A program made the translations under genes and the position numbers. A stretch of 64,000 nt of DNA from Escherichia coli (lineage in GTDB: Bacteria; Pseudomonadota; Gammaproteobacteria; Enterobacterales; Enterobacteriaceae), in assembly GCF_024223415.1 (NCBI RefSeq), contig NZ_CP100500.1. One strand, 5' to 3'. Below the pieces are notes generated by a model. That model worked only from the letters and a program-made list of their open reading frames with translations, was not told the DNA's origin and did not search any database. Numbering within the stretch: the stretch's first letter is position 1; each line of letters begins with the position of its first letter. Below, piece by piece: positions 2,655 to 24,009 of the stretch.

Positions 2655-3149
2655 ATGAGCATGGTCGCAAGACCGGAAGCCGCCCCTGCACGGGACGATA
2701 TCCCCGACACCGACGACGGCGACGCCACCATCACCGCCGGGGCATTCTGGCCGGAGATTGTGCTGCGGGAGCTGCGCCTTGCAGTACGCCTGCCGGGCCG
2801 CATCACCTCCACACGTCTGGCGCACGTTGCCACGGGAGCCGTGGCTCACGTCACGCGGGAGCTGGAAGAGTGGCAGAAGACGCAGTCTGCCGCAGGGTTC
2901 AGCATCCTCGCAGAAGTGCCTGCCGCCACCATCAACGGTGAGAGCGTCAACGTATGGCATTACCGCAACGCCGTCTACAGCGCCACCCGCGCCCTGATTC
3001 TGGAACGCTGGCGGGATGTGGACACCACTGATAAAGGGAACCGCCGGGCTGACGCACTGGATGAGCAGATGGAAGACTTATGGCGCGATGTGCGCTGGTC
3101 CGTGGCAGATATTCTGGGTCGCCCCCGTCTTTTTGCGGAGCTGGTGTGA
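2655..3149 (+). CDS. L: head completion/stabilisation protein, P2 gpL family
   Basis: 164 aa with a GAAGGAG SD at 2641-2647. Size and position between gpM and gpX match P2 order. Confidence 0.75.
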   Translation: MSMVARPEAAPARDDIPDTDDGDATITAGAFWPEIVLRELRLAVRLPGRITSTRLAHVATGAVAHVTRELEEWQKTQSAAGFSILAEVPAATINGESVNVWHYRNAVYSATRALILERWRDVDTTDKGNRRADALDEQMEDLWRDVRWSVADILGRPRLFAELV

Positions 3150-4576: not shown

Positions 4577-4721
4577 ACACCCCACCTGGGGAAATATCGG
4601 GATATGGAGCGACAGCCTCCTGGATGCACTGGAAACCTGCAACGCAGACAAACGGGCCATTGAGGCGATGGAGCGCCGGAGACTCAACCGACAGAACGGA
4701 GAGGCGCATGCTGAAAAGTAA
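4407..4721 (+). CDS. o-spanin lipoprotein (P2 LysC / Rz1-like), overlapping the i-spanin in the +1 frame
   Basis: Signal peptide ends in the lipobox LLTGC and the mature part is proline-rich. It begins inside the i-spanin and extends past it, as in P2 lysB/lysC. An alternative start is at 4437. Confidence 0.65.
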   Translation: MNSFAKLLRRMSAPALFLTTVLLTGCANTRNAPLPAPSFRFIPAGLTTGTRPPPFPEHPTWGNIGIWSDSLLDALETCNADKRAIEAMERRRLNRQNGEAHAEK

Positions 4722-5172
4722 ATCCCTGAGCACACACATGAGTACAGCGTGCCGGTGGTGCAGGGCCAACCCGGAAAAGTTCACCGTGTTCATTGAACGT
4801 GGCGGGATAGAGACCACCGGCGAGACGCCGACGTTCGTGTACAACTACCGGCTGGTGATGTTCGTGATGGACTACACGGGCGATCTGGACAACCTGACGC
4901 TTCCACTGATTGTCTGGCTGGCAGAGAACCAGCCGCAGTTGCTGCTTAATCCTGAGCGCAACAACGATATTCAGTTCACGGCGGCCATTAACGACGACGA
5001 CAGCGCGGACGTGCTGTTTGAGCTGCCGTTACGTGAACGCGTGCGCGTCACCCGCAGGGATGACGGCACCCTCATGACAGAACATCTACCGGAGCCGAAA
5101 TCACGCATCCCGCAGGACGGCGACTGGTCACACATTCTGGAGGATGTGACGTGGAACATTGTCACCGGATAA
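4708..5172 (+). CDS. R: tail completion protein, P2 gpR family
   Basis: MLKSKSL... with a GGAGAGG SD. Colinear with remembered P2 gpR (MLKPDSL..., ...WLRENQP...). 154 aa against 155 aa. Confidence 0.8.
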   Translation: MLKSKSLSTHMSTACRWCRANPEKFTVFIERGGIETTGETPTFVYNYRLVMFVMDYTGDLDNLTLPLIVWLAENQPQLLLNPERNNDIQFTAAINDDDSADVLFELPLRERVRVTRRDDGTLMTEHLPEPKSRIPQDGDWSHILEDVTWNIVTG

Positions 5173-8228: not shown

Positions 8229-10463
8229 ATGAGCACGAGAAAATTCAGAACCCTTATCACCGACATCGGGCTGGCAAAGCTGGCCGCAACAACGGCGCCT
8301 GGCGGTAGACCTGTACGCCTTACGCACATGGCTGTAGGGGACGGCAATGGAGAGCTTCGTCAGCCGCAGAAAAACCAGACATCGCTTTACAATGAGGTTT
8401 GGCGCCAGTCTGTCAACCGCGTCTTCACCGACCCGGAGAACCCGAACCGCCTCATCGCCGAACTGGTCATTCCTCCTGAAACCGGCGGATTCTGGGTGCG
8501 TGAAATTGGTGTGTTTGATGATACAGGTACAATGATTGCAGTAGGAAATACCGCTGAAAGTTACAAGCCCACCAGAGAGGAAGGTTCAGGGCGGGCGCAG
8601 ATATTCCGTGCAGTAATCACCGTCACCTCCGACGCCGTGGTGGAACTGGTCATGGACACAACAACAATTCTGCCGACCACGGACTACATTGATGAGAAAA
8701 TAGCGGAACACGCACGTTCCCGTAACCACCCTGACGCGACACTGACAGAAAAAGGATTCACCCAACTGAGCAGCGCCACAAACAGCACCTCTGAAACACT
8801 GGCCGCCACACCGAAGGCCGTCAAGGCTGCATATGACCTTGCAGCCGGTAAAGCACCCGCCAGCCACACCCACCCGTGGAATCAGATAACAGGTGTGCCA
8901 TCAGCCTCGCTGACGGCAAAAGGCACCGTACAGCTGAGCAGTGCCACAAACAGTGAGTCAGAGACTGAGGCCGCCACCCCCAAAGCGGTTAAAGCCTTAC
9001 ACGATATGGTGACGAGCAAGTATACAGGACAGGATGCAACCACCGGACGCAAAGGCATCGTACAGCTGAGCAGCGCCACAAACAGCAATTCCGAAACACT
9101 GGCGGCCACACCGAAGGCAGTAAGTGATGCACTGAGCATGGCGTTCGTGAAGCCAACAACATCCCTGGGGGAAACAGACCTGAACACTCTGGGGAGTAAG
9201 GAAGACGCGGGAGATTATTACCAGCAGAGTGACTCAGGTGCGAGAACAGACAGAAACTATCCTGTAGAGAAGGCAGGAGAGTTACGCATCCGTGTTGGTG
9301 CATGGGGATTCTGCCAGCATGAATACACGAGCTGGGATCCGCCACGAAAATTTATCAGGACAGTTACCGGAAACTTTAACGGTAACGGCCCATGGTCAGA
9401 GTGGGTGGAGGTGACAAACACAGATGCAACAACTGGACGCAAAGGCATCGTACAGCTGAGCAGCGATACAAACAGCAATTCCGAAACGCTGGCGGCCACA
9501 CCAAGAGCCGTCAAGGCTGCATATGACCTTGCAGCCGGTAAAGCACCCGCCAGCCACACCCACCCGTGGAATCAGATAACAGGTGTGCCATCAGCCTCGC
9601 TGACGGCAAAAGGCACCGTACAGCTGAGCAGTGCCACAAACAGTGAGTCAGAGACTGAGGCCGCCACCCCCAAAGCGGTTAAAGCCTTACACGATATGGT
9701 GACGAGCAAGTATACAGGACAGGATGCAACCACCGGACGCAAAGGCATCGTACAGCTAAGCAGCGCCACAAACAGCAATTCCGAAACGCTGGCGGCCACA
9801 CCAAAAGCTGTTAAAGCTGCGTATGACCTTGCCAACAGCAAAGCCTCGGCAGCCCACACTCATCGCTGGGCTCAGATCACAGACGCCCCTGTTTTTTCGT
9901 CTGTTGCCCGCGTCATCATGGGTAAACAAAGCATAAAAGATATTCTTGATTACCTTGGTTTAGGAGAAGGCTCGACGCTGCCAGTTGGCGTACCCGTTCC
10001 GTGGCCTTCGTCAAGACCACCTGAGGGGTGGTTACAGTGCAACGGTGCCGCATTCACGCGTACAAAATACCCAAAACTGGCGGTGGCCTACCCTGACCTC
10101 AGGCTACCAGATTTGCGCGGGGAATTTATTCGTGGATGGGATGACCTGCGAATGATTGACAGGGGACGCTTATTGTTATCCACACAGGAAGCAACATATA
10201 TTTGTACCGCCATACAGGCGTACCACGGCGTAGCGGGAGGTGCAGATATTCAGGCAGGGATTTCATTTGCATCACATGATAACGACATCATAAACATAAC
10301 CCCTGATCAACCCAGAACCGGTAACGGCATCCTGTACGGCACAAAACCAGTTGACAGATGGGCAATAGCCAGAGCCGGTAAGCTGGTGAGTAATGAAAAA
10401 GACAGATGGATAGCGATCAGACCGCGCAATATCGCTTTTAATTATATTGTGAGGGCAGTTTAA
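8229..10463 (+). CDS. H: tail fibre protein, P2 gpH N-terminus with a mosaic distal part
   Basis: The first ~200 aa are colinear with remembered P2 gpH (KFRT.IT..G.AKLAA.TAPG..., AELVIPPE.GGFW.RE.G..DD.GT.IAV.N.AESYKP). Six QLSSATNS.SET.AATPKAV repeats. C-terminal tail-collar-type motif PEGWLQCNGAAF...YPKLAVAYP...LPDLRGEFIRGWD. Confidence 0.9.
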   Translation: MSTRKFRTLITDIGLAKLAATTAPGGRPVRLTHMAVGDGNGELRQPQKNQTSLYNEVWRQSVNRVFTDPENPNRLIAELVIPPETGGFWVREIGVFDDTGTMIAVGNTAESYKPTREEGSGRAQIFRAVITVTSDAVVELVMDTTTILPTTDYIDEKIAEHARSRNHPDATLTEKGFTQLSSATNSTSETLAATPKAVKAAYDLAAGKAPASHTHPWNQITGVPSASLTAKGTVQLSSATNSESETEAATPKAVKALHDMVTSKYTGQDATTGRKGIVQLSSATNSNSETLAATPKAVSDALSMAFVKPTTSLGETDLNTLGSKEDAGDYYQQSDSGARTDRNYPVEKAGELRIRVGAWGFCQHEYTSWDPPRKFIRTVTGNFNGNGPWSEWVEVTNTDATTGRKGIVQLSSDTNSNSETLAATPRAVKAAYDLAAGKAPASHTHPWNQITGVPSASLTAKGTVQLSSATNSESETEAATPKAVKALHDMVTSKYTGQDATTGRKGIVQLSSATNSNSETLAATPKAVKAAYDLANSKASAAHTHRWAQITDAPVFSSVARVIMGKQSIKDILDYLGLGEGSTLPVGVPVPWPSSRPPEGWLQCNGAAFTRTKYPKLAVAYPDLRLPDLRGEFIRGWDDLRMIDRGRLLLSTQEATYICTAIQAYHGVAGGADIQAGISFASHDNDIINITPDQPRTGNGILYGTKPVDRWAIARAGKLVSNEKDRWIAIRPRNIAFNYIVRAV
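8817..9105. repeat. ~290-bp direct repeat inside gpH, copy 1
   Basis: Near-identical by eye to 9507-9795 (offset 690 bp), e.g. tcaaggctgcatatgaccttgcagccggtaaagcacccgccagccacacc occurs at 8821 and 9511. Confidence 0.85.
9507..9795. repeat. ~290-bp direct repeat inside gpH, copy 2
   Basis: See copy 1. The two copies bracket 9106-9506, which encodes a knob-like domain. Confidence 0.85.
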
Positions 10464-15519: not shown

Positions 15520-16038
15520 TTAACCACCAAGACCAATCGCCGAGCGCACGCGGTCCGGGAAGACGTTTTTGCCGTCCTTGCGTTCGATGTGGTTCAGTAA
15601 ATCAATCTCCAGCACCGGACGGTCGTTAATGCTGAGTTTGTAGTAGGTACTCCTGACCGCATAGGTGTGAGACGTGACCTCACCCTGTTTTGCCTCCCCC
15701 GTATCAATTTCCGTCACGCGGCCGCGAAGCTCAATTTCATACAGGTCGCTCTGCTCTTCATCGTTGTAGTACTCACCGACAAAGCGCAGCAGCGTACCGT
15801 CGATCGTGCCGCCGTACTTAAGGAACAGTTCGCGGGTCGGCCCGCCCATGGTGAAACTCGCATCCAGCGCGCCGTCATCCAGACCAAGGTCGATATTCAC
15901 CGCGCCGGCCATACCACCACCGCGATAGGCTTCCGTTTTACGGGTCAGTTTGGGGGGCGTGAAGCCGGTCACCCTGCCAATCTGGTTCACCCCGTCAGTA
16001 AACAGCGTGAACACCCTGAGATTTTTTGGTACGGCCAT
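15520..16038 (-). CDS. FII: tail tube protein, P2 gpFII family
   Basis: 172 aa, the same length as P2 FII. TAATG overlap with the sheath stop. Confidence 0.9.
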   Translation of the reverse strand: MAVPKNLRVFTLFTDGVNQIGRVTGFTPPKLTRKTEAYRGGGMAGAVNIDLGLDDGALDASFTMGGPTRELFLKYGGTIDGTLLRFVGEYYNDEEQSDLYEIELRGRVTEIDTGEAKQGEVTSHTYAVRSTYYKLSINDRPVLEIDLLNHIERKDGKNVFPDRVRSAIGLGG

Positions 16039-17321
16039 TAAGCACCTCCAAGCGTCGCAAATGCAGGACCAAAGAATTCATCAGTAAACGTCTGGTAAAG
16101 TTCCATATCCTCAAGCGGCGGAACGGGCGTGTACTTGTAGCGGATACGCACGCGTCCCTGACGAAGTTCCGTGGTGCTGTTATCCACCACGTCATACCAG
16201 CACTCCGCACCAATGAGACGTCCTGACGTAACCAGCGCATCCAGTTTTGCGCGAATTGCGCTTAACACGTCTTTCACATTAGCAGGGGTCAGCGGGGCAT
16301 CAATCGTTTCAAACTGCGCTTCCGCAATGGAATCAGCCAGCACCTGAGCGGTTCGCGTGTACACCTCAAAGATATACGCCTTCGTTTCCGGCGTACGGTT
16401 GCCCCAGAAGCGGAAACCGTTACGGCAAATGATGGTAGTGATTTCCTTGTTGTTGAGATTGTTGGCATCGCTGTCTTCGGACTGAAGGGACCAGAACACC
16501 GGGCTGGAAATACCCAGCACATTTGTTACCGGCACGTTGGACAGCGATTTATGCCAGCCCTGTTCGTGGTCAATACGTGCACGTAAACCGCAGGCGTACG
16601 CCGCAGCCGGGAAGACCTCATTAGCGCCGGATTTCGGGTTATAGGCGATGAAGTCAGGCCAGAGCAGCATAAGTTCGCGCTCGTTAAATCTGGCGCGGTA
16701 GCTGATTGCATCAGCGGGCTTCTTGCAGTTGTGACAGCCCGCGTAGACAAATGCGCGAAGTTTTTCTGCAATTACACACAGGGATTTTGTGACAGCTTCA
16801 GTATCCAGTCCGGGAGCTGCGATGATGCGCGGACGGTAACCGATGGCATCATCCTGTTCAGCTATCAGAAGTGCATACATACCGGTATAATTACCGTCGC
16901 CATCCGTGCCACCAATGACATACTGGTCCTGCGTTTTGTGTGGGTATACAGGATGTGCATCTTCAGACTCATCAATACCAAAAAATGCCCTGTCTTCAGG
17001 ATCCAGATGACCGAATGATGTAACTCCTGTATCCGGGGCGCCCTGAGAACTGGTATCAGGAACGCGCACCACAATCACCTTCGTGCTCACCTGGTCGGCG
17101 ACAGCCTTAAGCGATTTGTAAAGCGTCCCCTTTGTGCCGGCCTTACCCAGCACATCACTGACGCGGGTCAGCAGTGTGGGTTTGTTCAGCGGGAACAGAG
17201 TTTCATCCGCGTCATCTGCCGTAGCCACAATACCAATAACACTGGAATCCACATCATTAATGGCGGTGGCAAGGCCGGTACTTTCCCTTACGCGCGCACC
17301 ATGAAAGCGTGTTTCACTCAT
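16038..17321 (-). CDS. FI: contractile tail sheath protein, P2 gpFI family
   Basis: MSETRFHGARV...IGIVATADDADETLFPLNKPTLLTRV...AGTKGTLYKSLKAVADQ is colinear with the remembered P2 FI N-terminus. The 49-codon upstream extension in the ORF track is rejected. Confidence 0.9.
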   Translation of the reverse strand: MSETRFHGARVRESTGLATAINDVDSSVIGIVATADDADETLFPLNKPTLLTRVSDVLGKAGTKGTLYKSLKAVADQVSTKVIVVRVPDTSSQGAPDTGVTSFGHLDPEDRAFFGIDESEDAHPVYPHKTQDQYVIGGTDGDGNYTGMYALLIAEQDDAIGYRPRIIAAPGLDTEAVTKSLCVIAEKLRAFVYAGCHNCKKPADAISYRARFNERELMLLWPDFIAYNPKSGANEVFPAAAYACGLRARIDHEQGWHKSLSNVPVTNVLGISSPVFWSLQSEDSDANNLNNKEITTIICRNGFRFWGNRTPETKAYIFEVYTRTAQVLADSIAEAQFETIDAPLTPANVKDVLSAIRAKLDALVTSGRLIGAECWYDVVDNSTTELRQGRVRIRYKYTPVPPLEDMELYQTFTDEFFGPAFATLGGA

Positions 17322-17394
17322 ATGTTTCACCCTTGTCTGGCTGGTTGATTTTGCGTAATCATTACCCACACACGCGGTAATCTCACCCCTTTGA

Positions 17395-17418
17395 TGTTGT
17401 CTCCTGACAGCGACAACA
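17395..17418. promoter_or_regulatory. Ogr/Delta-type late-promoter activator site (TGT-N12-ACA dyad)
   Basis: TGTTGTC-tcctgacagc-GACAACA. The inner TGT (17398-17400) and ACA (17413-17415) are exactly 12 bp apart. It lies in the divergent FI/D intergenic region, about 55 bp upstream of a plausible FI transcription start. Confidence 0.55.
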
Positions 17419-17482
17419 AAACAGCCATTCAACGCCGCTGCGGTGCATGAAACCATTACAGAACGCACCAGGAGAGAACACC

Positions 17483-18574
17483 ATGAAAGAGCTGTCAGTT
17501 ACCGTTCCGTCACCGGATATCGACATCACCATCAACAACAACACACTGGCAAACCTCACAGAGCGACTCATGACGCTGACCCTGACGGATAACCGGGCCT
17601 TTGAGGCAGACCGCGTCACCCTCACCCTTGACGATACGGACGGGCAGTTACAGTTGCCACCACGTGGCGCACGCCTGAGAGTGATGATTGGCTGGCGAGG
17701 AGAATCACTGGTTAACAAGGGCACCTACGTCGTTGATGAGGTTGCGTGGGAAGGACCTCCAGATAAACTGATCATCACCGCCAGCAGCGCAGATTTTCGG
17801 GAAGAGTTCAACGTGAGGCGGGAGGTATCCTGGCACGACGTGACCGTAAAACAGGTTGTGTCAGCCATCGCTCACCGCTACGGCCTGAAGACACAGATAA
17901 GCGAAATCCTCATGGATATCGAAATTGACCACGCTGACCAGACCGAAGAGAGCGATATATCCTTCCTGACCCGCATGGCTGAAATGCTGGGTGCGATTGC
18001 CACCGTAAAAAACGGCAGCCTGTTATTCATTCTGCCGGGTGGCGGAACCGGGCCGGACGGAAGAGCCCTGCCTTCGTTCGCCATTACCCGCAGCAGCGGC
18101 GACAGTCACCGCTTTCGCATTGCTGACCGTGATGCGTATACGGGGGTCCGGGCGCACTGGCTCGATCTGAAGTTCGGGCAAAAGAAAAAAGTGAACGTGA
18201 AGCGACGCAGGGAAGCCGGGAAACAGAAACAGGAGAAGAGCAGCAGCCGGGAGGGTGATTACATGGAAGGCGCGGAAGGGAACGTCTACGTTCTGCGCAG
18301 GACTTACCAGAATGAAGAAACCGCACGACGTGCAGCTGCGGCAAAGTGGCAGGAGTTACAGCGGGGAGCAGCGGCATTCTCCATCACTCTGGCACGGGGT
18401 CGTGCCGACCTGTACCCCGAAATGCACGGCAGGGTAACAGGTTTTAAAAGCGAGGTGGACAATCAGGACTGGATTATTGCCAGGGTGGAGCACATCATAG
18501 ATGAAAGCGGCTTCACCACACAACTGGAGCTGGAAGCGAAAATCCCCGAATGGATAGCAGATTCAGGCGGATAA
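17483..18574 (+). CDS. D: late control/tail protein, P2 gpD family
   Basis: GGAGAG SD. LMTLTLTDNRAFEADRVTLTLDDTDGQLQLPPRGA is the hallmark gpD motif. Confidence 0.85.
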   Translation: MKELSVTVPSPDIDITINNNTLANLTERLMTLTLTDNRAFEADRVTLTLDDTDGQLQLPPRGARLRVMIGWRGESLVNKGTYVVDEVAWEGPPDKLIITASSADFREEFNVRREVSWHDVTVKQVVSAIAHRYGLKTQISEILMDIEIDHADQTEESDISFLTRMAEMLGAIATVKNGSLLFILPGGGTGPDGRALPSFAITRSSGDSHRFRIADRDAYTGVRAHWLDLKFGQKKKVNVKRRREAGKQKQEKSSSREGDYMEGAEGNVYVLRRTYQNEETARRAAAAKWQELQRGAAAFSITLARGRADLYPEMHGRVTGFKSEVDNQDWIIARVEHIIDESGFTTQLELEAKIPEWIADSGG

Positions 18575-18617
18575 AATTAAAATGAGCCATCTCCACTCAG
18601 CCAGATAAGGAGAAGCC

Positions 18618-18869
18618 ATGTTCCGTTGTCCCCTATGCGGTGCATCCGCACGTATCCGCACCAGTCGCAATGAAAATGATTCAGGCACAGTTCGCCTGAA
18701 GTACTACCAGTGCAATAACCTCGAATGCGGGATCGGCTTTACCACACTGGAGGGTTTTAACAAATTCACATCAAAACGCGCCCCGTCGCCGCAGGGTACA
18801 GAGCGGATACCGTGGGAAGATTTTCCGGGATCTCACAGGGGGAATACTCAGATTAATCTTGATATTTAA
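18618..18869 (+). CDS. ogr: late gene transcription activator, Ogr/Delta zinc-finger family
   Basis: MFRCPLCGASARIRTSR...YYQCNNLECGIGFTTLE matches P2 Ogr (MFHCPLCQHAAHARTSR...YHQCQNVNCSATFITYE) with the CxxC...CxxxxC arrangement. Confidence 0.9.
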   Translation: MFRCPLCGASARIRTSRNENDSGTVRLKYYQCNNLECGIGFTTLEGFNKFTSKRAPSPQGTERIPWEDFPGSHRGNTQINLDI

Positions 18870-18918
18870 GAACAATAATCAGGTTGAGAGGACATCATAA
18901 GGCAAGTAGATTAACGGC

Positions 18919-19013
18919 AGATACTTTCCCGCAACCACGGGCAAGTATTTAATTATCCATGATGAAATATGACCTAAATTGTTTTTTGCCCGCCGGAAAG
19001 CGGGCATTTTTTT
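18919..19013 (+). ncRNA. predicted sRNA, A-type copy A0 (directly after ogr)
   Basis: Promoter TTGAGA (18884-18889), 17-bp spacer, TAGATT (18907-18912). Internal hairpin CCCG-caacca-CGGG. Terminator GCCCGC-cggaaa-GCGGGC (18988-19005) followed by a T-run. The 5' end is estimated. Confidence 0.45.
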
Positions 19014-19227
19014 ATTCTTTTGTGGTTATGGGGTCATCAGGAACCACGTGCAGATTATATTTTTGTTTTTTTGGCGTTCCTCCGGCAGCAACGAGTTCAT
19101 CAATAAGACACTGACACGCCTGAACATCCCGGGCATGTCTTAGTTTCACCTTTATTGATTTAACCTTATCCTCACCGGAGGAGAAATGCAGTTCAATCTC
19201 AATATCGTTTCTTCGGAACAATCTCAT
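19012..19227 (-). CDS. hypothetical small protein R1 (71 aa), the only intact copy of a triplicated ORF
   Basis: MRLFRRNDIEIELHFSSGEDKVK.... The start with an SD is conserved in the two decayed copies (AGGAGG in copy 2). The stop abuts the bidirectional terminator. No family recognised. Confidence 0.4.
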   Translation of the reverse strand: MRLFRRNDIEIELHFSSGEDKVKSIKVKLRHARDVQACQCLIDELVAAGGTPKKQKYNLHVVPDDPITTKE

Positions 19228-19321
19228 ACGCCCCCTGAATATATCAGAAATACTAGTATCGAAAAATGAGAAAACAGTTAGACAGGAGAAACATATTAAC
19301 ACAAATCATTTATACCTATAG

Positions 19322-19339
19322 ATGAAATTATAATTTCAT
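19322..19339. promoter_or_regulatory. perfect 18-bp palindrome ATGAAATTATAATTTCAT between divergent R1 and B1
   Basis: Read directly from the sequence. Degenerate versions sit at the same place in unit 2 (~20497) and unit 3 (~21143). Confidence 0.4.
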
Positions 19340-19371
19340 TCATGAATATGATAGATAACTATATTGTGAAC

Positions 19372-19478
19372 AAAATGAAAAATGGCTAAATTAAAAATGG
19401 GCATGGAGGAATGCCCGGTTATCAATATAATGTGACGTAGATCATTGTTTTGCCCGCCGGAGAGCGGGCATTTTTTTT
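19372..19478 (+). ncRNA. predicted sRNA, B-type copy B1
   Basis: -10 TATATT at 19360-19365. Hairpin GGGCAT-ggagga-ATGCCC. Terminator hairpin 19452-19469 followed by T8. Ends are estimated. Confidence 0.35.
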
Positions 19479-19582
19479 GCGCCTGCCATCGAGGCGCCTT
19501 CCCTGGCGCACACAAAGCAGCCCTGATTTTCCATGAAAACTTCAGGGTTGAGCTGCGGGCACAAAGTGAGTAGATTAGCTAC

Positions 19583-19679
19583 GGGTACCTCCCCCTGACA
19601 ACAGGAAGGGTGTCCATTATCCATGATATACAAACGAAAAGTCTTGTTTTTTGCCCGCCGAAGCGCGGGCATTTTTTTA
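19583..19679 (+). ncRNA. predicted sRNA, A-type copy A1 (immediately upstream of hok locus 1)
   Basis: TTGAGC (19548-19553), 17-bp spacer, TAGATT (19571-19576). 5' hairpin around CCUGACAACAGG. Terminator 19653-19670 followed by T7. Confidence 0.45.
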
Positions 19680-19723
19680 TGCATCAGACAAGATACAGCC
19701 CACCCCAACTGACACCTGAAATA

Positions 19724-19752
19724 TTGCCGCAACAAAAAGAAACAGTTAAATT
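19724..19752 (+). promoter_or_regulatory. candidate hok/mok mRNA promoter
   Basis: TTGCCG (19724-19729), 16/17-bp spacer, TTAAAT/TAAATT (19746-19752). The predicted start coincides with GGGUGCCUU (19759-19767), which is complementary to a 3' element (20102-20110). Confidence 0.5.
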
Positions 19753-19794
19753 ACGCGCGGGTGCCTTTCGGCTGATGGCCGGAGGGAAAACCTG

Positions 19795-19864
19795 AAGGCC
19801 GGATGTGGAAAGGCCCCGGAAAACATTTCTGTTTAACCGAGGCCCTAACCGCATTACCTTGACA
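19795..19864 (-). ncRNA. sok: candidate Sok-like antisense RNA (ends approximate)
   Basis: Minus-strand promoter TTGCTC (19899-19894), 17-bp spacer, TAACCT (19876-19871), overlapping the hok SD. The transcript would cover the mok start at 19805, as in R1 hok/sok. No terminator could be resolved. Confidence 0.35.
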
Positions 19865-20038
19865 AGTGAAAGGTTAGCGCCTCTCCGGAAAAGGAGCAAG
19901 TGCTATGTCGCAAAAATCGCTTACGGCCATCACGTTCTGCGTGACGGCAATCCTCATCATCTGGATATTGCACGGTTCGCTGTGCGAAATACGGATGAGC
20001 TTCTGGGGAGCGGAGTTTGCGGCGTTCTTACAATGTAA
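19805..20038 (+). CDS. mok: mok-like overlapping reading frame
   Basis: 77-codon ORF with a GAAGG SD. It starts 100 nt upstream of hok and overlaps almost all of it in another frame, which is the hok/mok architecture. Confidence 0.5.
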   Translation: MERPRKTFLFNRGPNRITLTSERLAPLRKRSKCYVAKIAYGHHVLRDGNPHHLDIARFAVRNTDELLGSGVCGVLTM

Positions 20039-20045
20039 GAAGTAA
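19905..20045 (+). CDS. hok: Hok/Gef-family type I toxin (46 aa)
   Basis: AAGGAG SD. MSQKSLTAITFCVTAILIIWILHGSLCEIRMSFWGAEFAAFLQCKK has one TM plus the SLCE...AAF motif of Hok proteins; closest by memory to HokA. Confidence 0.8.
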   Translation: MSQKSLTAITFCVTAILIIWILHGSLCEIRMSFWGAEFAAFLQCKK

Positions 20046-20134
20046 GGAAACCGCGACGGGGGAGCAATCCCCCGTCAATCGGTTGCCAGGGTAAGGTCGA
20101 TAAGGCACCCTATCTCACAGACATGAACAAACAA

Positions 20135-20167
20135 ACCCGCAGCATAAAAACTGCGGGTTTTCTTTTT
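20135..20167 (+). terminator. intrinsic terminator of hok locus 1
   Basis: ACCCGCAG-cataaaaa-CTGCGGGT followed by TTTTCTTTTT. Confidence 0.7.
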
Positions 20168-20298
20168 GGTGTCCTCACCGACTTGAAACAGTGATCAGAC
20201 TATAAGACAAAGCCCGCAATGTTGCGGGCTTACTCTACCTCTCGAAAATGTGGTCACTGCGTGGACATACGCTGATACAAATCCTTTATATCAATAAA

Positions 20299-20397
20299 TT
20301 AAATCTTTGTTTTTTTCATCAACAATGATTTAACCTTATCCTCACCGGAGGAGAAATGCAGTTCAATCTCAATATCGTTTCTGTGGAACAGCCTCAT
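20299..20397 (-). pseudogene. truncated copy R2 of the small ORF (32 codons)
   Basis: MRLFHRNDIEIELHFSSGEDKVKS is identical in pattern to R1; it then diverges and stops. An AGGAGG SD is retained. Confidence 0.4.
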
Positions 20398-20544
20398 AAG
20401 ACAACCTCCTGAATTCATCAGAAACACAGTCAACTGAAAACCAGAAAGCAGACAAACAGTGGACACACATTAATACAAATCATTTATACCTATAGATGAA
20501 ATTGCAGTTTCATCTATAACATGACAGGTAACAATATTGTGAAA

Positions 20545-20651
20545 AAACTCAAAACTCGTTAGATTAAAGACGGACAGAGCAATGCTACTTTATCAATAAC
20601 ATGTAACCTGTACTTCCTTATTTTGCCCGCCGAAGCACGGGCATTTTTTTT
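20545..20651 (+). ncRNA. predicted sRNA, B-type copy B2 (divergent body)
   Basis: -10 AATATT near 20533. Terminator 20625-20642 followed by T8. The body differs from B1/B3. Confidence 0.3.
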
Positions 20652-20755
20652 GCGCCTGCCATCGAGGCGCCTTCCCTGGCGCACACAAAGCAGCCCTGAT
20701 TTTCCATGAAAACTTCAGGGTTGAGCCAAAAGCACAAAGACAGTAGATTAACCAC

Positions 20756-20849
20756 GGGTGCCTTCCACCTGACAACAGGAAGGGTGTCCAGTATCAATGA
20801 CAGACAACTCACATTGCTGTTTTGCCCGCCGGAAAGCGGGCATTTTTTT
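20756..20849 (+). ncRNA. predicted sRNA, A-type copy A2
   Basis: TTGAGC (20721-20726), 17-bp spacer, TAGATT (20744-20749). Hairpin CCTTCC-acctgacaaca-GGAAGG. Terminator 20824-20841 followed by T7. Confidence 0.45.
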
Positions 20850-20981
20850 ATTCTTTTGTGGTTATTGGGTCATCAGGAACAACATGCAGATTATGCTTTG
20901 ATTTTTTTGGTGTTATTACAGCAGCAACGAGTTTATTAATAAGACACTGACATGCCTGAACATCCCTGACATATCATAATA

Positions 20982-21053
20982 TCACTTTATTTTTTTAGCT
21001 TGTCCTTTCTGGAGCAGAAATATCTCAACATCGTTTCTGTGGAACAACCTCAT
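20982..21053 (-). pseudogene. decayed copy R3 of the small ORF (stop after 23 codons, internal deletions)
   Basis: MRLFHRNDVEIFLLQKGQAKKIK*. Flanking DNA is still alignable by eye to the R1 gene. Confidence 0.35.
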
Positions 21054-21192
21054 TTGCCCTTGAATGTATCATAAATATCAGCATCGGAAAACCAACAGCA
21101 ATACAGAAGAAACATGTTAATGCAAATCACTTATACCTATAGATGAAATTACAGTTTTGTTCATAAATATGATAAGTAACTATATTGTGAAT

Positions 21193-21300
21193 AAAATGAA
21201 AACTAGCTAAATTAAACGTGGGCATGGTGGAATGCCTCGTAATCAATAATACATGATCCGTACTTCCTTGTTTTGCCCGCCGGAAAGCGGGCATTTTTTT
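21193..21300 (+). ncRNA. predicted sRNA, B-type copy B3
   Basis: -10 TATATT at 21181-21186. Hairpin GGGCAT-ggtgga-ATGCC. Terminator 21275-21292 followed by T7. Confidence 0.35.
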
Positions 21301-21404
21301 GGCGGTTACCATCGCCTCACCTTCCTGGTTCACATGAAGCAACCCTGATTTTCCATGAAAACTTCAGGGTTGAGACAAAAGCACAAAGACAGTAGATTAA
21401 CCAC

Positions 21405-21497
21405 GGGTACCTTCCACCTGACAACAGGAAGGCTGTCCAGTATCAATGACAGACAACTCACATTGCTGTTTTGCCCGCCGGAAAGCGGGCTTTTTTT
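21405..21497 (+). ncRNA. predicted sRNA, A-type copy A3
   Basis: TTGAGA (21370-21375), 17-bp spacer, TAGATT (21393-21398). Terminator 21473-21490 followed by T7. Confidence 0.45.
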
Positions 21498-21601
21498 GGC
21501 AGTTATCATAGCCGCACCTTCCTGGCACATATGAAGCAACCCTGATTTTCCATGAAAACTTCAGGGTTGAGACAAAAGCACAAAAACAGTAGATTAACCA
21601 C

Positions 21602-21699
21602 GGGTGCCTGCCACCTGACAACAGGAAGGGTGTCCATTATCCATGATATACAAACGAAAAGTCTTGTCTTTTGCCCGCCAAAGCGCGGGCATTTTTTTA
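21602..21699 (+). ncRNA. predicted sRNA, A-type copy A4 (immediately upstream of hok locus 2)
   Basis: TTGAGA (21567-21572), 17-bp spacer, TAGATT (21590-21595). The 3' half is identical in pattern to A1. Terminator 21673-21690 followed by T7. Confidence 0.45.
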
Positions 21700-21909
21700 T
21701 GCATCAGACAAGATACAGCCCACCCCAACTGACACCTGAAATATTGCCGCAACAAAAAGAAACGGGTGCCTTTCGGCTGATGGCCGGAGGGAAAACCTGA
21801 AGGCCGGATGTGGAAAGGCCCCGGAAAACATCTGTGTTTAACCGAGGCCTGACCCTTCCTACCGTGACAAGTGGAAGGTTAGCGCCTCTTTGTAAAAGGA
21901 GCAAGCGCT

Positions 21910-22050
21910 ATACCGCAAAAAACGATTATTGTTGGCATTTTATGCCTGACAATAACCCTGGTCATCTGGATGGTCCACGATTCGTTATGTGAATTCAGCT
22001 TTGATATCTGGGGAGCGCGTTTTGCGGCGTTCTTGCAGTGTAAACCGTAA
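21910..22050 (+). pseudogene. hok: hok-family toxin gene with ATG>ATA start and deleted promoter
   Basis: (I)PQKTIIVGILCLTITLVIWMVHDSLCEFSFDIWGARFAAFLQCKP. The first codon is ATA where locus 1 has ATG. A 16-bp deletion removes the -10 element present in locus 1. Confidence 0.65.
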
Positions 22051-22200
22051 GAAACCGCAGCGGGGGAGAAATTCCCCGCTATCCGGTTGTTGGGGTGGGC
22101 CGATATGGCGCCCTTTCCCTGTAGAGACAAAACAAAAAACCAGATTTGCCCGCCATTGAGAGGGCTTTTTTGTCACCCTCACCAGTGAGGGCATCATCAT

Positions 22201-22422
22201 TCAGAGGCGCGTAAGCCACCCGGCGTTAACATCCTGCCTGTCAACCCTGGCCGCAGAGTCTGAACGGCAGGTACCGGAAGGAGTACCAAAAACATCCCTG
22301 ACAAGTTCCGCCACCTTCCCGATATCATCAGGTGTCACATTCCTCACCTCGGCAGTGATCCGTGGCGTACCATCATCGTTAACAAGAGTGGCTTTAAAGC
22401 TGGTGCGAAGGGAAAACAACAT
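22201..22422 (-). CDS. hypothetical small protein (~73 aa)
   Basis: GGGAGGGG SD upstream of clustered ATGs. No family recognised. Not part of the serS region as I remember K-12. Confidence 0.3.
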   Translation of the reverse strand: MLFSLRTSFKATLVNDDGTPRITAEVRNVTPDDIGKVAELVRDVFGTPSGTCRSDSAARVDRQDVNAGWLTRL

Positions 22423-22626
22423 CAACATCCCCTCCCTTTGGTTCGTTGCACTGACGGCACGACACCATCAGGAAAAAGAAAAGCCCACAACGTCAGTATT
22501 GTGGACTTTTTTCTTCAAAGATGGACATTATCTGGACACATGAAAATAAAATCCATTTATTTTCATATAGTTAAGTACCATGCAAAAGCGCCCGCAGGCG
22601 CTTTTTAGATTCAGAAAAATTAGGTA

Positions 22627-23940
<1,314 letters not shown>

Positions 23941-24009
23941 TTAAATGGGAGATGTGGCCACAGCCTGCGACCACAGGGATACAGTAACAACATTACCGCA
24001 ACGATAACA

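Follow-up and report, generated by a model that had tools for sequence, protein, structure and literature searches.

A single Ogr-type site as a candidate two-way late promoter between the divergent FI and D genes of a P2-like prophage in Escherichia coli

In the 64,000-nt stretch of Escherichia coli DNA analyzed here (the window), the prophage tail genes FI and D point away from each other across an intergenic gap of 161 bp (17322-17482). Because the block of genes from FI to U is inverted relative to D-ogr, D needs a transcription start of its own, and the question is where that start lies and which activator, if any, it shares with its neighbor. A preliminary description of the locus, made from the letters alone, had proposed that one dyad of the type bound by the late activator Ogr could serve promoters on both sides of the gap. 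The comparison with related phages and prophages presented here favors this proposal, with one correction to the promoter elements.

The gene calls on which the question depends are borne out by protein families. FI, D and ogr, as named in the preliminary description, match the Pfam sheath, GPD and Ogr_Delta families (E=4.9e-14 for the last), and the FI-FII-E-T-U unit on the minus strand gave matches to Phage_sheath_1, Phage_tube, PhageMin_Tail and Phage_P2_GpU. The RefSeq annotation of an identical E. coli locus agrees with both the FI and the D start, and the gene identities at the sibling locus agree as well. Copies of the gap that are 100% identical are present in at least 26 complete E. 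coli genomes. A prophage of E. coli SCU-115 (L002, hereafter the sibling prophage) shows 99.8% identity to the phage part of the window over the first 9 kb. The closest isolated phages are P88 and its relatives (Xuanwuvirus, ~74% DNA identity), followed by phiT5282H (Novemvirus) and 3LV2017 (Reginaelenavirus), and in the groups of all three FI-FII-E-T-U lie on one strand and D-ogr on the other.

How widespread this arrangement is was assessed by a gpD search with one genome per species, which returned 23 loci, 22 of them with both FI and D. The two genes diverge in 22/22, across gaps of 145-166 bp, and ogr follows D in all loci of the search that reach that far. The 22 loci come from Salmonella, Edwardsiella, Enterobacter, Pantoea, Kosakonia, Mixta, Brenneria, Kluyvera, Citrobacter, Izhakiella, Trabulsiella and Xenorhabdus. 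With every one of them divergent, the layout is the norm for a large clade: it is the standard arrangement of P88-like, phiT5282H-like and 3LV2017-like Peduoviridae and of related Enterobacterales prophages, and is not peculiar to the window.

Some differences among close copies were also recorded. The sibling prophage, otherwise 99% identical, differs in a repeat region of the tail-fibre gene (window 8229-10463; 744 aa here, shorter there), and FI has a variable segment relative to it (window 16898-17056; 427 aa vs 396 aa, 88.8% identity). In SCU-115 the tape-measure gene carries a pseudogene annotation. In the P88 record (NC_026014, L001) a 43-codon "hypothetical protein" at 20246-20377 spans the FI/D gap, covering the dyad and the FI-side promoter elements, and is likely a spurious gene call.

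The gap contains one activator-type site; the second-best match is the same site on the opposite strand. The perfect 7-bp inverted repeat reported in the preliminary description agrees with the sequence base for base, its halves TGTTGTC (17395-17401) and GACAACA (17412-17418) being separated by a 10-bp spacer and followed by a run of A (ACAACAAAA, to 17421). It is also, as had been stated, the only dyad in the gap that bears TGT-N12-ACA. That bare pattern means little when taken alone, because it is not enriched in the window (10 matches vs 18.6 expected, i.e. rarer than chance), and we dropped it as evidence. The extended form TGTTGT-N12-ACAACA, matching at 12/12 bases, has its sole occurrence in the 64 kb at 17395. 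Two other candidates in the window were rejected. One, at 56152-56175 (TGATGTTGTTATACCTGAACAACA), resembles TGTTGT...ACAACA with a different, 9-bp spacer and lies in AT-rich host intergenic DNA between an ABC-transporter ATPase gene and oxoprolinase-like genes, where it is probably a chance match; the other, at 4859-4876 (TGTTCGTGATGGACTACA), is a TGT-N12-ACA within the tail-completion gene 4624-5172, upstream of S, has four mismatches to the extended dyad and was likewise taken as chance. Across relatives the right half of the FI/D dyad, GACAAC(A), is kept throughout and the left half varies by lineage, so that the better-conserved half lies on the side away from FI, as at P2 pF and pV.

A consensus scan found no sigma-70 consensus promoter on either strand of 17322-17482. 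The preliminary description had assigned the -10 role to a mirrored pair of ATTAC motifs. The motifs do stand at the positions reported (Table 1), but as -10 elements they are about 3 nt off and are not conserved, being limited to this phage type: the FI-side copy is absent in P88, Enterobacter, Xenorhabdus and other relatives, and the D-side copy is likewise absent in relatives. The conserved hexamers, AATGAT on the FI side and AACCAT on the D side, lie 3 nt nearer the dyad, each overlapping the adjoining ATTAC by 2 nt, and we adopt them in place of ATTAC as the predicted -10 elements. Both retain -11A and -7T. Table 1 gives, by gap index, the invariant columns of a MAFFT alignment of 16 gaps (A1; mean identity 55%), among which A37, T38 and T41 correspond to -7T, -8A and -11A of the FI-side hexamer on the minus strand. 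The D-side hexamer is weak, matching TATAAT at 3/6 positions. The starts predicted from these hexamers are 112 bp apart; the predicted D leader includes an AGGAGA ribosome-binding site, and an in-frame ATG at 17447, upstream of the D ATG, would fall outside the predicted D transcript.

Table 1. Features of the FI/D gap and its surroundings (window coordinates; A1 columns by gap index)
Feature	Position	Strand	Remarks
FI, tail sheath gene	16038..17321	-	Pfam phage sheath domains (Phage_sheath_1); heads the FI-FII-E-T-U unit, down to 11145; start codon ends at 17321
Predicted FI transcription start, ~17351 (A)	17349..17353	-	7 nt past hexamer; dyad at ~-55.5; leader ~29 nt; placed from the hexamer and P2 starts
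ATTAC, FI side	17355..17359	-	plus-strand GTAAT; covers -8, -7 and three discriminator bases; not conserved
Predicted FI promoter -10 hexamer AATGAT	17358..17363	-	last base 48.5 bp from dyad centre; plus-strand A37, T38, T41 invariant in A1
Conserved TCAC(G/C)C element	17383..17388	-	~-36 to -31 of predicted FI promoter; C63, A64, C65 invariant in A1
Ogr-type dyad TGTTGTC-N10-GACAACA	17395..17418	.	perfect 7-bp inverted repeat; centre 17406.5
Inner TGT-N12-ACA core	17398..17415	.	classical P2/P4 late-promoter consensus; T77, T79, A92-C93-A94 invariant in A1
Weak -35-like TTCAAC	17428..17433	+	17 bp upstream of AACCAT; 3/6 bases match; T107 invariant in A1; not called by consensus scan
Predicted D promoter -10 hexamer AACCAT	17451..17456	+	last base 49.5 bp from dyad centre; T135 invariant in A1
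ATTAC, D side	17455..17459	+	present; not conserved in relatives
Predicted D transcription start, ~17463 (A)	17461..17465	+	7 nt past hexamer; dyad at ~-56.5; leader ~20 nt; placed likewise
D, tail/baseplate hub gene, GPD family	17483..18574	+	Pfam Phage_GPD; RefSeq start identical; ATG at 17483
TAAAATG, Pogr-like -10	18578..18584	+	34 nt before ogr ATG
ogr, late activator gene	18618..18869	+	Pfam PF04606 Ogr_Delta, E=4.9e-14; zinc finger C-X2-C ... C-X4-C
Terminator-like hairpin and T run	18987..19006	+	downstream of ogr; simple scan

A further conserved element, TCAC(G/C)C, belongs to the FI side only: it lies 19-24 bp from the dyad centre without a mirrored counterpart on the D side, and the IMG/VR locus L031 described below lacks it. 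A hand alignment that paired CACGC at 17371-17375 with the CACGC of the relatives, implying a 12-bp insertion, was wrong; MAFFT and the dyad-anchored alignment both give TCACCC at 17383-17388 as the homologue, at constant spacing. A 10-mer, CTCACCCCTT, is found at window 17382-17391, on the FI side of the FI/D gap, and again at 2853-2862 of the sibling prophage, on the P side of its P/O gap, with its distance to the dyad centre being 15.5 bp in the former and 34.5 bp in the latter.

Evidence that the two hexamers belong with the dyad comes from their spacing. We anchored 19 non-identical gaps from nine Enterobacterales lineages on the dyad without allowing gaps, and at each offset tallied hexamers of the form nAnnnT, in which the second base is A and the sixth is T. 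On the FI side such a hexamer ends 48.5 bp from the centre in 18 sequences and 49.5 bp in one (19/19), on the D side 48.5 bp in 16 and 49.5 bp in three (19/19), and at each of the remaining offsets between 28.5 and 63.5 it is found in 0 to 3 of the 19 gaps. A scan of IMG/VR added 80 loci with 45 unique cores, 45/45 of which have nAnnnT at 48.5/49.5 on both sides, counts that overstate the number of independent observations because related sequences have common ancestry, the truly distinct ones amounting to about nine lineages and a few IMG/VR types besides, perhaps a dozen in all. The distance from one -7 position to the other is 97-98 bp in all relatives (98 bp in the window), while the FI ATG lies 30-40 nt and the D ATG 19-37 nt from its own -7. 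Since the distance to the dyad is constant while the leaders vary by 10-18 nt, the position of the hexamers is set by the dyad rather than by the genes.

One of the IMG/VR loci is close to a natural swap experiment. In L031 (2778261447_000012, ~1800-2000) the sequence matches the window from FI to ~17367 and is unrelated beyond that point, the dyad and the entire D side having been replaced and the D-side hexamer being a different one; the spacing is still 48.5/48.5. The dyad of this locus, CGTTCTC-N10-TACAACA, has TTCGCTTACAACAAAC in common with the P/O site of the sibling prophage, and the junction may record an exchange between FI/D and P/O modules.

A second candidate module of these phages lies between the divergent late operons that begin with P and O. 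For the window's phage this P/O gap falls just beyond the window and was read from the sibling prophage (L002 2823-2976), where a single dyad, TGTTGTC-N10-TACAACA, is flanked by TAAACT and CATCAT, both of which end 49.5 bp from its centre. In each of four phages of the group the P/O gap carries a single dyad, accompanied at 48.5-49.5 by CATCAT and by either TAAACT or TAATCT. Each phage has its own left half, common to its P/O and FI/D gaps (TGTTGTC in the window prophage, with P/O from the sibling; (T/C)GTTCT in P88; GGTCTGG in phiT5282H; GGTTGTG in 3LV2017), and the right half ACAACAA(A) is constant in both gaps of the four phages. Such a match between the two gaps of each phage would be expected were both sites read by a single activator, namely the Ogr that the phage itself encodes. 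A position-weight scan of the four genomes, partly circular because its matrix was built from known sites, scored two sites above 27 and nothing else above 16, bar the same sites reversed, and so revealed no third, pV-type site upstream of V; there is in addition no room for pV, because V overlaps S. Judged from these sequences, the phages of this group seem to control their four late units through two sites, each acting in both directions. We considered and rejected the idea that the FI/D gap is a plain duplicate of the P/O gap: its D-side flank resembles the P-side flank (a CGCGCGCG run, then a hexamer), but the orientation of the dyad would be reversed.

Three other explanations have to be weighed. 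According to the first, the dyad is the Ogr site of the FI promoter only, equivalent to P2 pF, and D is read from an adjacent, Ogr-independent, weak sigma-70 promoter, TTCAAC-17-AACCAT. The well-conserved half distal to FI does make the site look oriented towards FI, as in P2 pF and pV, yet P2 pP already reads a shared site in this "reversed" orientation. On the D side, TT is conserved at +21/+22 from the dyad in the anchored alignment, placing TT(G) ~17 bp upstream of the hexamer at the distance of a -35 element, and Xenorhabdus has the pair TTGTCT-17-AATCAT; moreover, since ogr can be read from a promoter of its own, a link between the D unit and Ogr is not required. An Ogr-independent promoter, however, could drift relative to the dyad, yet the D-side -10 stands at 48.5-49.5 in 64 sequences in which the leader varies by 18 nt, and the mapped P2 promoters pP and pO use the same distance. 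The consensus scan calls no such promoter in the gap, and D is a structural tail gene that in P2 is expressed late, from the F operon. On balance we regard this explanation, the main rival to the two-way reading, as unlikely, and consider some Ogr-independent basal expression of D possible, given the conserved TT(G) at -35 distance.

The second explanation places no D promoter in the gap at all, with D read from elsewhere, such as a start within FI on the antisense strand, or expressed at a low level in a prophage undergoing decay. Some copies are decaying, as the tape-measure pseudogene annotated in one sibling genome indicates, but FI is divergent and leaves D with no co-directional upstream gene, the conserved D-side hexamer and the ribosome-binding site point to a local start, and isolated phages with recorded hosts (P88, phiT5282H, 3LV2017), which have to produce gpD, retain the layout; we hold this to be very improbable. 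That the inverted repeat arose by chance, acts as a hairpin or terminator, or is bound by another protein is barely credible: the bare core is not enriched and a weak terminator-like hairpin on the minus strand (17439-17420, simple scan) adjoins the dyad, but the 12/12 form has no second copy in the 64 kb, the dyad reappears in the P/O gap with the half-site characteristic of the phage, is conserved across genera and matches TGTTGT...ACAACA motifs at late promoter regions of other P2-like phages (PMC5694545; PMC3931495), and with both flanking genes diverging from it there is nothing to terminate.

Our preferred reading, to which we assign a probability of a little over 70%, is that the FI/D gap would constitute a two-way late promoter module of the P2 pP/pO type, in which the phage's own Ogr acts on one dyad. 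Several lines of evidence from sequence comparison thus support the original suggestion that one dyad serves both FI and D: the mirrored hexamers in 64 gap sequences, the geometry of P2 pP/pO, the lack of a sigma-70 consensus, and the variable half of the dyad, in which the P/O gap and the FI/D gap of any one phage agree. The reading predicts a dyad centre ~55-56 bp from both starts, which is the position of all mapped P2 late promoters. It is from this geometry and the comparison with P2 that we infer the binding of Ogr, the exact starts and the Ogr dependence of the D side.

Mechanistically, the phage's own Ogr-family activator, encoded 1.2 kb downstream, would bind the dyad at 17395-17418 and from about -55 recruit host RNA polymerase to two weak, divergent promoters without a real -35. 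Leftward transcription from near 17351 would lead into FI-FII-E-T-U, and rightward transcription from near 17463 into D and probably on into ogr, up to the hairpin at 18987-19006. Activation would involve the C-terminal domain of the RNA polymerase alpha subunit, as in P2 genetics, where a passage in PMC11434276 cites the suppression of rpoA109 (L290H) by ogr mutations, a genetic link between Ogr and alpha. The small promoter of ogr itself (TAAAATG) would allow Ogr to accumulate ahead of late promoter firing, and transcripts from the D promoter that run on into ogr would provide positive feedback, as does pF in P2. Because ogr keeps its own promoter and also lies downstream of the D promoter, Ogr could be made first and then boost its own synthesis. 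The annotated -10 of P2 Pogr (minus_10_signal 23996-24002) is the same heptamer at the same distance to the ogr ATG, and all relatives have a TAnAAT-like element at the Pogr position.

The DNA beyond ogr has features of its own. Some 3.7 kb (18870-22600) lack a long ORF and consist of nested repeats of roughly 200, 650 and 1170 bp, within which the terminator hairpin, TTTGCCCGCCGGAAAGCGGGCATTTTTTT, has nine copies; serS follows at 22627-23919. A search of 17000-23000 for known RNA families in Rfam gave just two sok-like matches (RF01794; 19759-19918 and 21764-21921), which at 48 and 46 bits are under the gathering score of 59, lie downstream of ogr and are unrelated to the FI/D gap. Together with a Hok-like ORF at 19905-20045 that carries an SLCEIR motif, they make the region look like an array of hok/sok-type toxin-antitoxin modules at the end of the prophage.

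The orientation of the dyad suggests how the divergent arrangement may have arisen. The conserved half distal to FI, as in P2 pF and pV, fits an inversion of the FI-U block together with its promoter, which would have brought the pF dyad next to D. Extended to the clade (Xuanwuvirus, Novemvirus, Reginaelenavirus and related Enterobacterales prophages of the Peduoviridae), the proposal is that the whole late programme is driven from two palindromic Ogr sites firing both ways (P-Q | O...G and U...FI | D-ogr), that the FI-U inversion carried the pF dyad beside D, and that the near-symmetry of the site allowed its reuse for a new D promoter, with ogr under positive feedback. We lean towards this wider proposal with somewhat less confidence than towards the two-way module itself.

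If the proposal is true, the P2-style sharing of an activator site extends to a second junction, and prophages common in E. coli, Salmonella, Klebsiella, Enterobacter and Xenorhabdus have a very economical late regulon of two sites for four operons. The locus would also be a simple natural case of a gene-block inversion that was tolerated because a near-palindromic activator site works both ways. In practical terms it shows annotators where late promoters should be placed and offers a compact, Ogr-inducible two-way promoter for reporters; the understanding of Ogr-type activation itself is unchanged.

The closest known system is P2 pP/pO, whose promoter positions we took from the GenBank feature table of NC_001895. 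It lists one "activator binding site; pO, pP promoters" at 3057-3087, with mapped starts at 3016 (-) and 3127 (+), i.e. 56 and 55 bp from the centre of the site. The starts are thus 111 bp apart, as against the predicted 112 bp here, and the last bases of the hexamers TAGCCT and GAAACT lie 49 and 48 bp from the site centre, giving 97 bp from -7 to -7; GAAACT of pO resembles the D-side AACCAT. Both systems have a single TGTTGT-type dyad in a 150-170 bp gap between divergent late operons, no -35 consensus and a phage-encoded activator of the Ogr family. They differ in the operons served (P-Q and O... in P2, FI...U and D-ogr here) and in the dyad, which is imperfect in P2, with a degenerate right half, whereas here it is a perfect 7-bp repeat.

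P2 pF is related in another way. It drives the homologous tail genes, has its conserved TGTTGT half distal to FI and its dyad ~55-58 bp upstream of the start, and has a leader similar in length to the one predicted here (25-29 nt). The annotated starts of pF and pV lie 58 and 55.5 bp from their site centres, and mapped P2 late starts overall lie at 55-58 bp. In contrast to the module proposed here, pF works in one direction and lacks a mirrored hexamer upstream, and FI-FII-E-T-U-D form one operon with D last (one operon of all seven genes when ogr is included).

Activators that bind near -55 to -61 contact the C-terminal domain of the RNA polymerase alpha subunit, and a symmetric site could in principle serve both sides. 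Two-way activation from a single site occurs with CRP at divergent promoters, and in P4 the promoters Psid and PLL are activated by Delta or Ogr. CRP belongs to another protein family and the P4 satellite is another element, and these cases serve as analogies only.

Among other phages, the late regions of phiRSY1 and phiRSA1 contain the predicted promoter motif TGTTGT-N13-ACAACA without sigma-70 type promoters (PMC5694545), and in Smp131 the predicted promoters PP' and PO' are given on the two strands of the same 18 bp (PMC3931495). These phages have in common with the window's phage the extended TGTTGT...ACAACA dyad in the 5' regions of late operons, but their D stays in the tail operon, and neither paper has a shared site at an FI/D junction. 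Our literature search found no paper on the late promoters of phages with the divergent FI/D layout, and the papers on these phages that it covered are silent on promoters. For P2 pP/pO it is already accepted that a single Ogr site serves two divergent late promoters, and the FI/D case would therefore be an extension of that arrangement to a further pair of operons and not a new principle.
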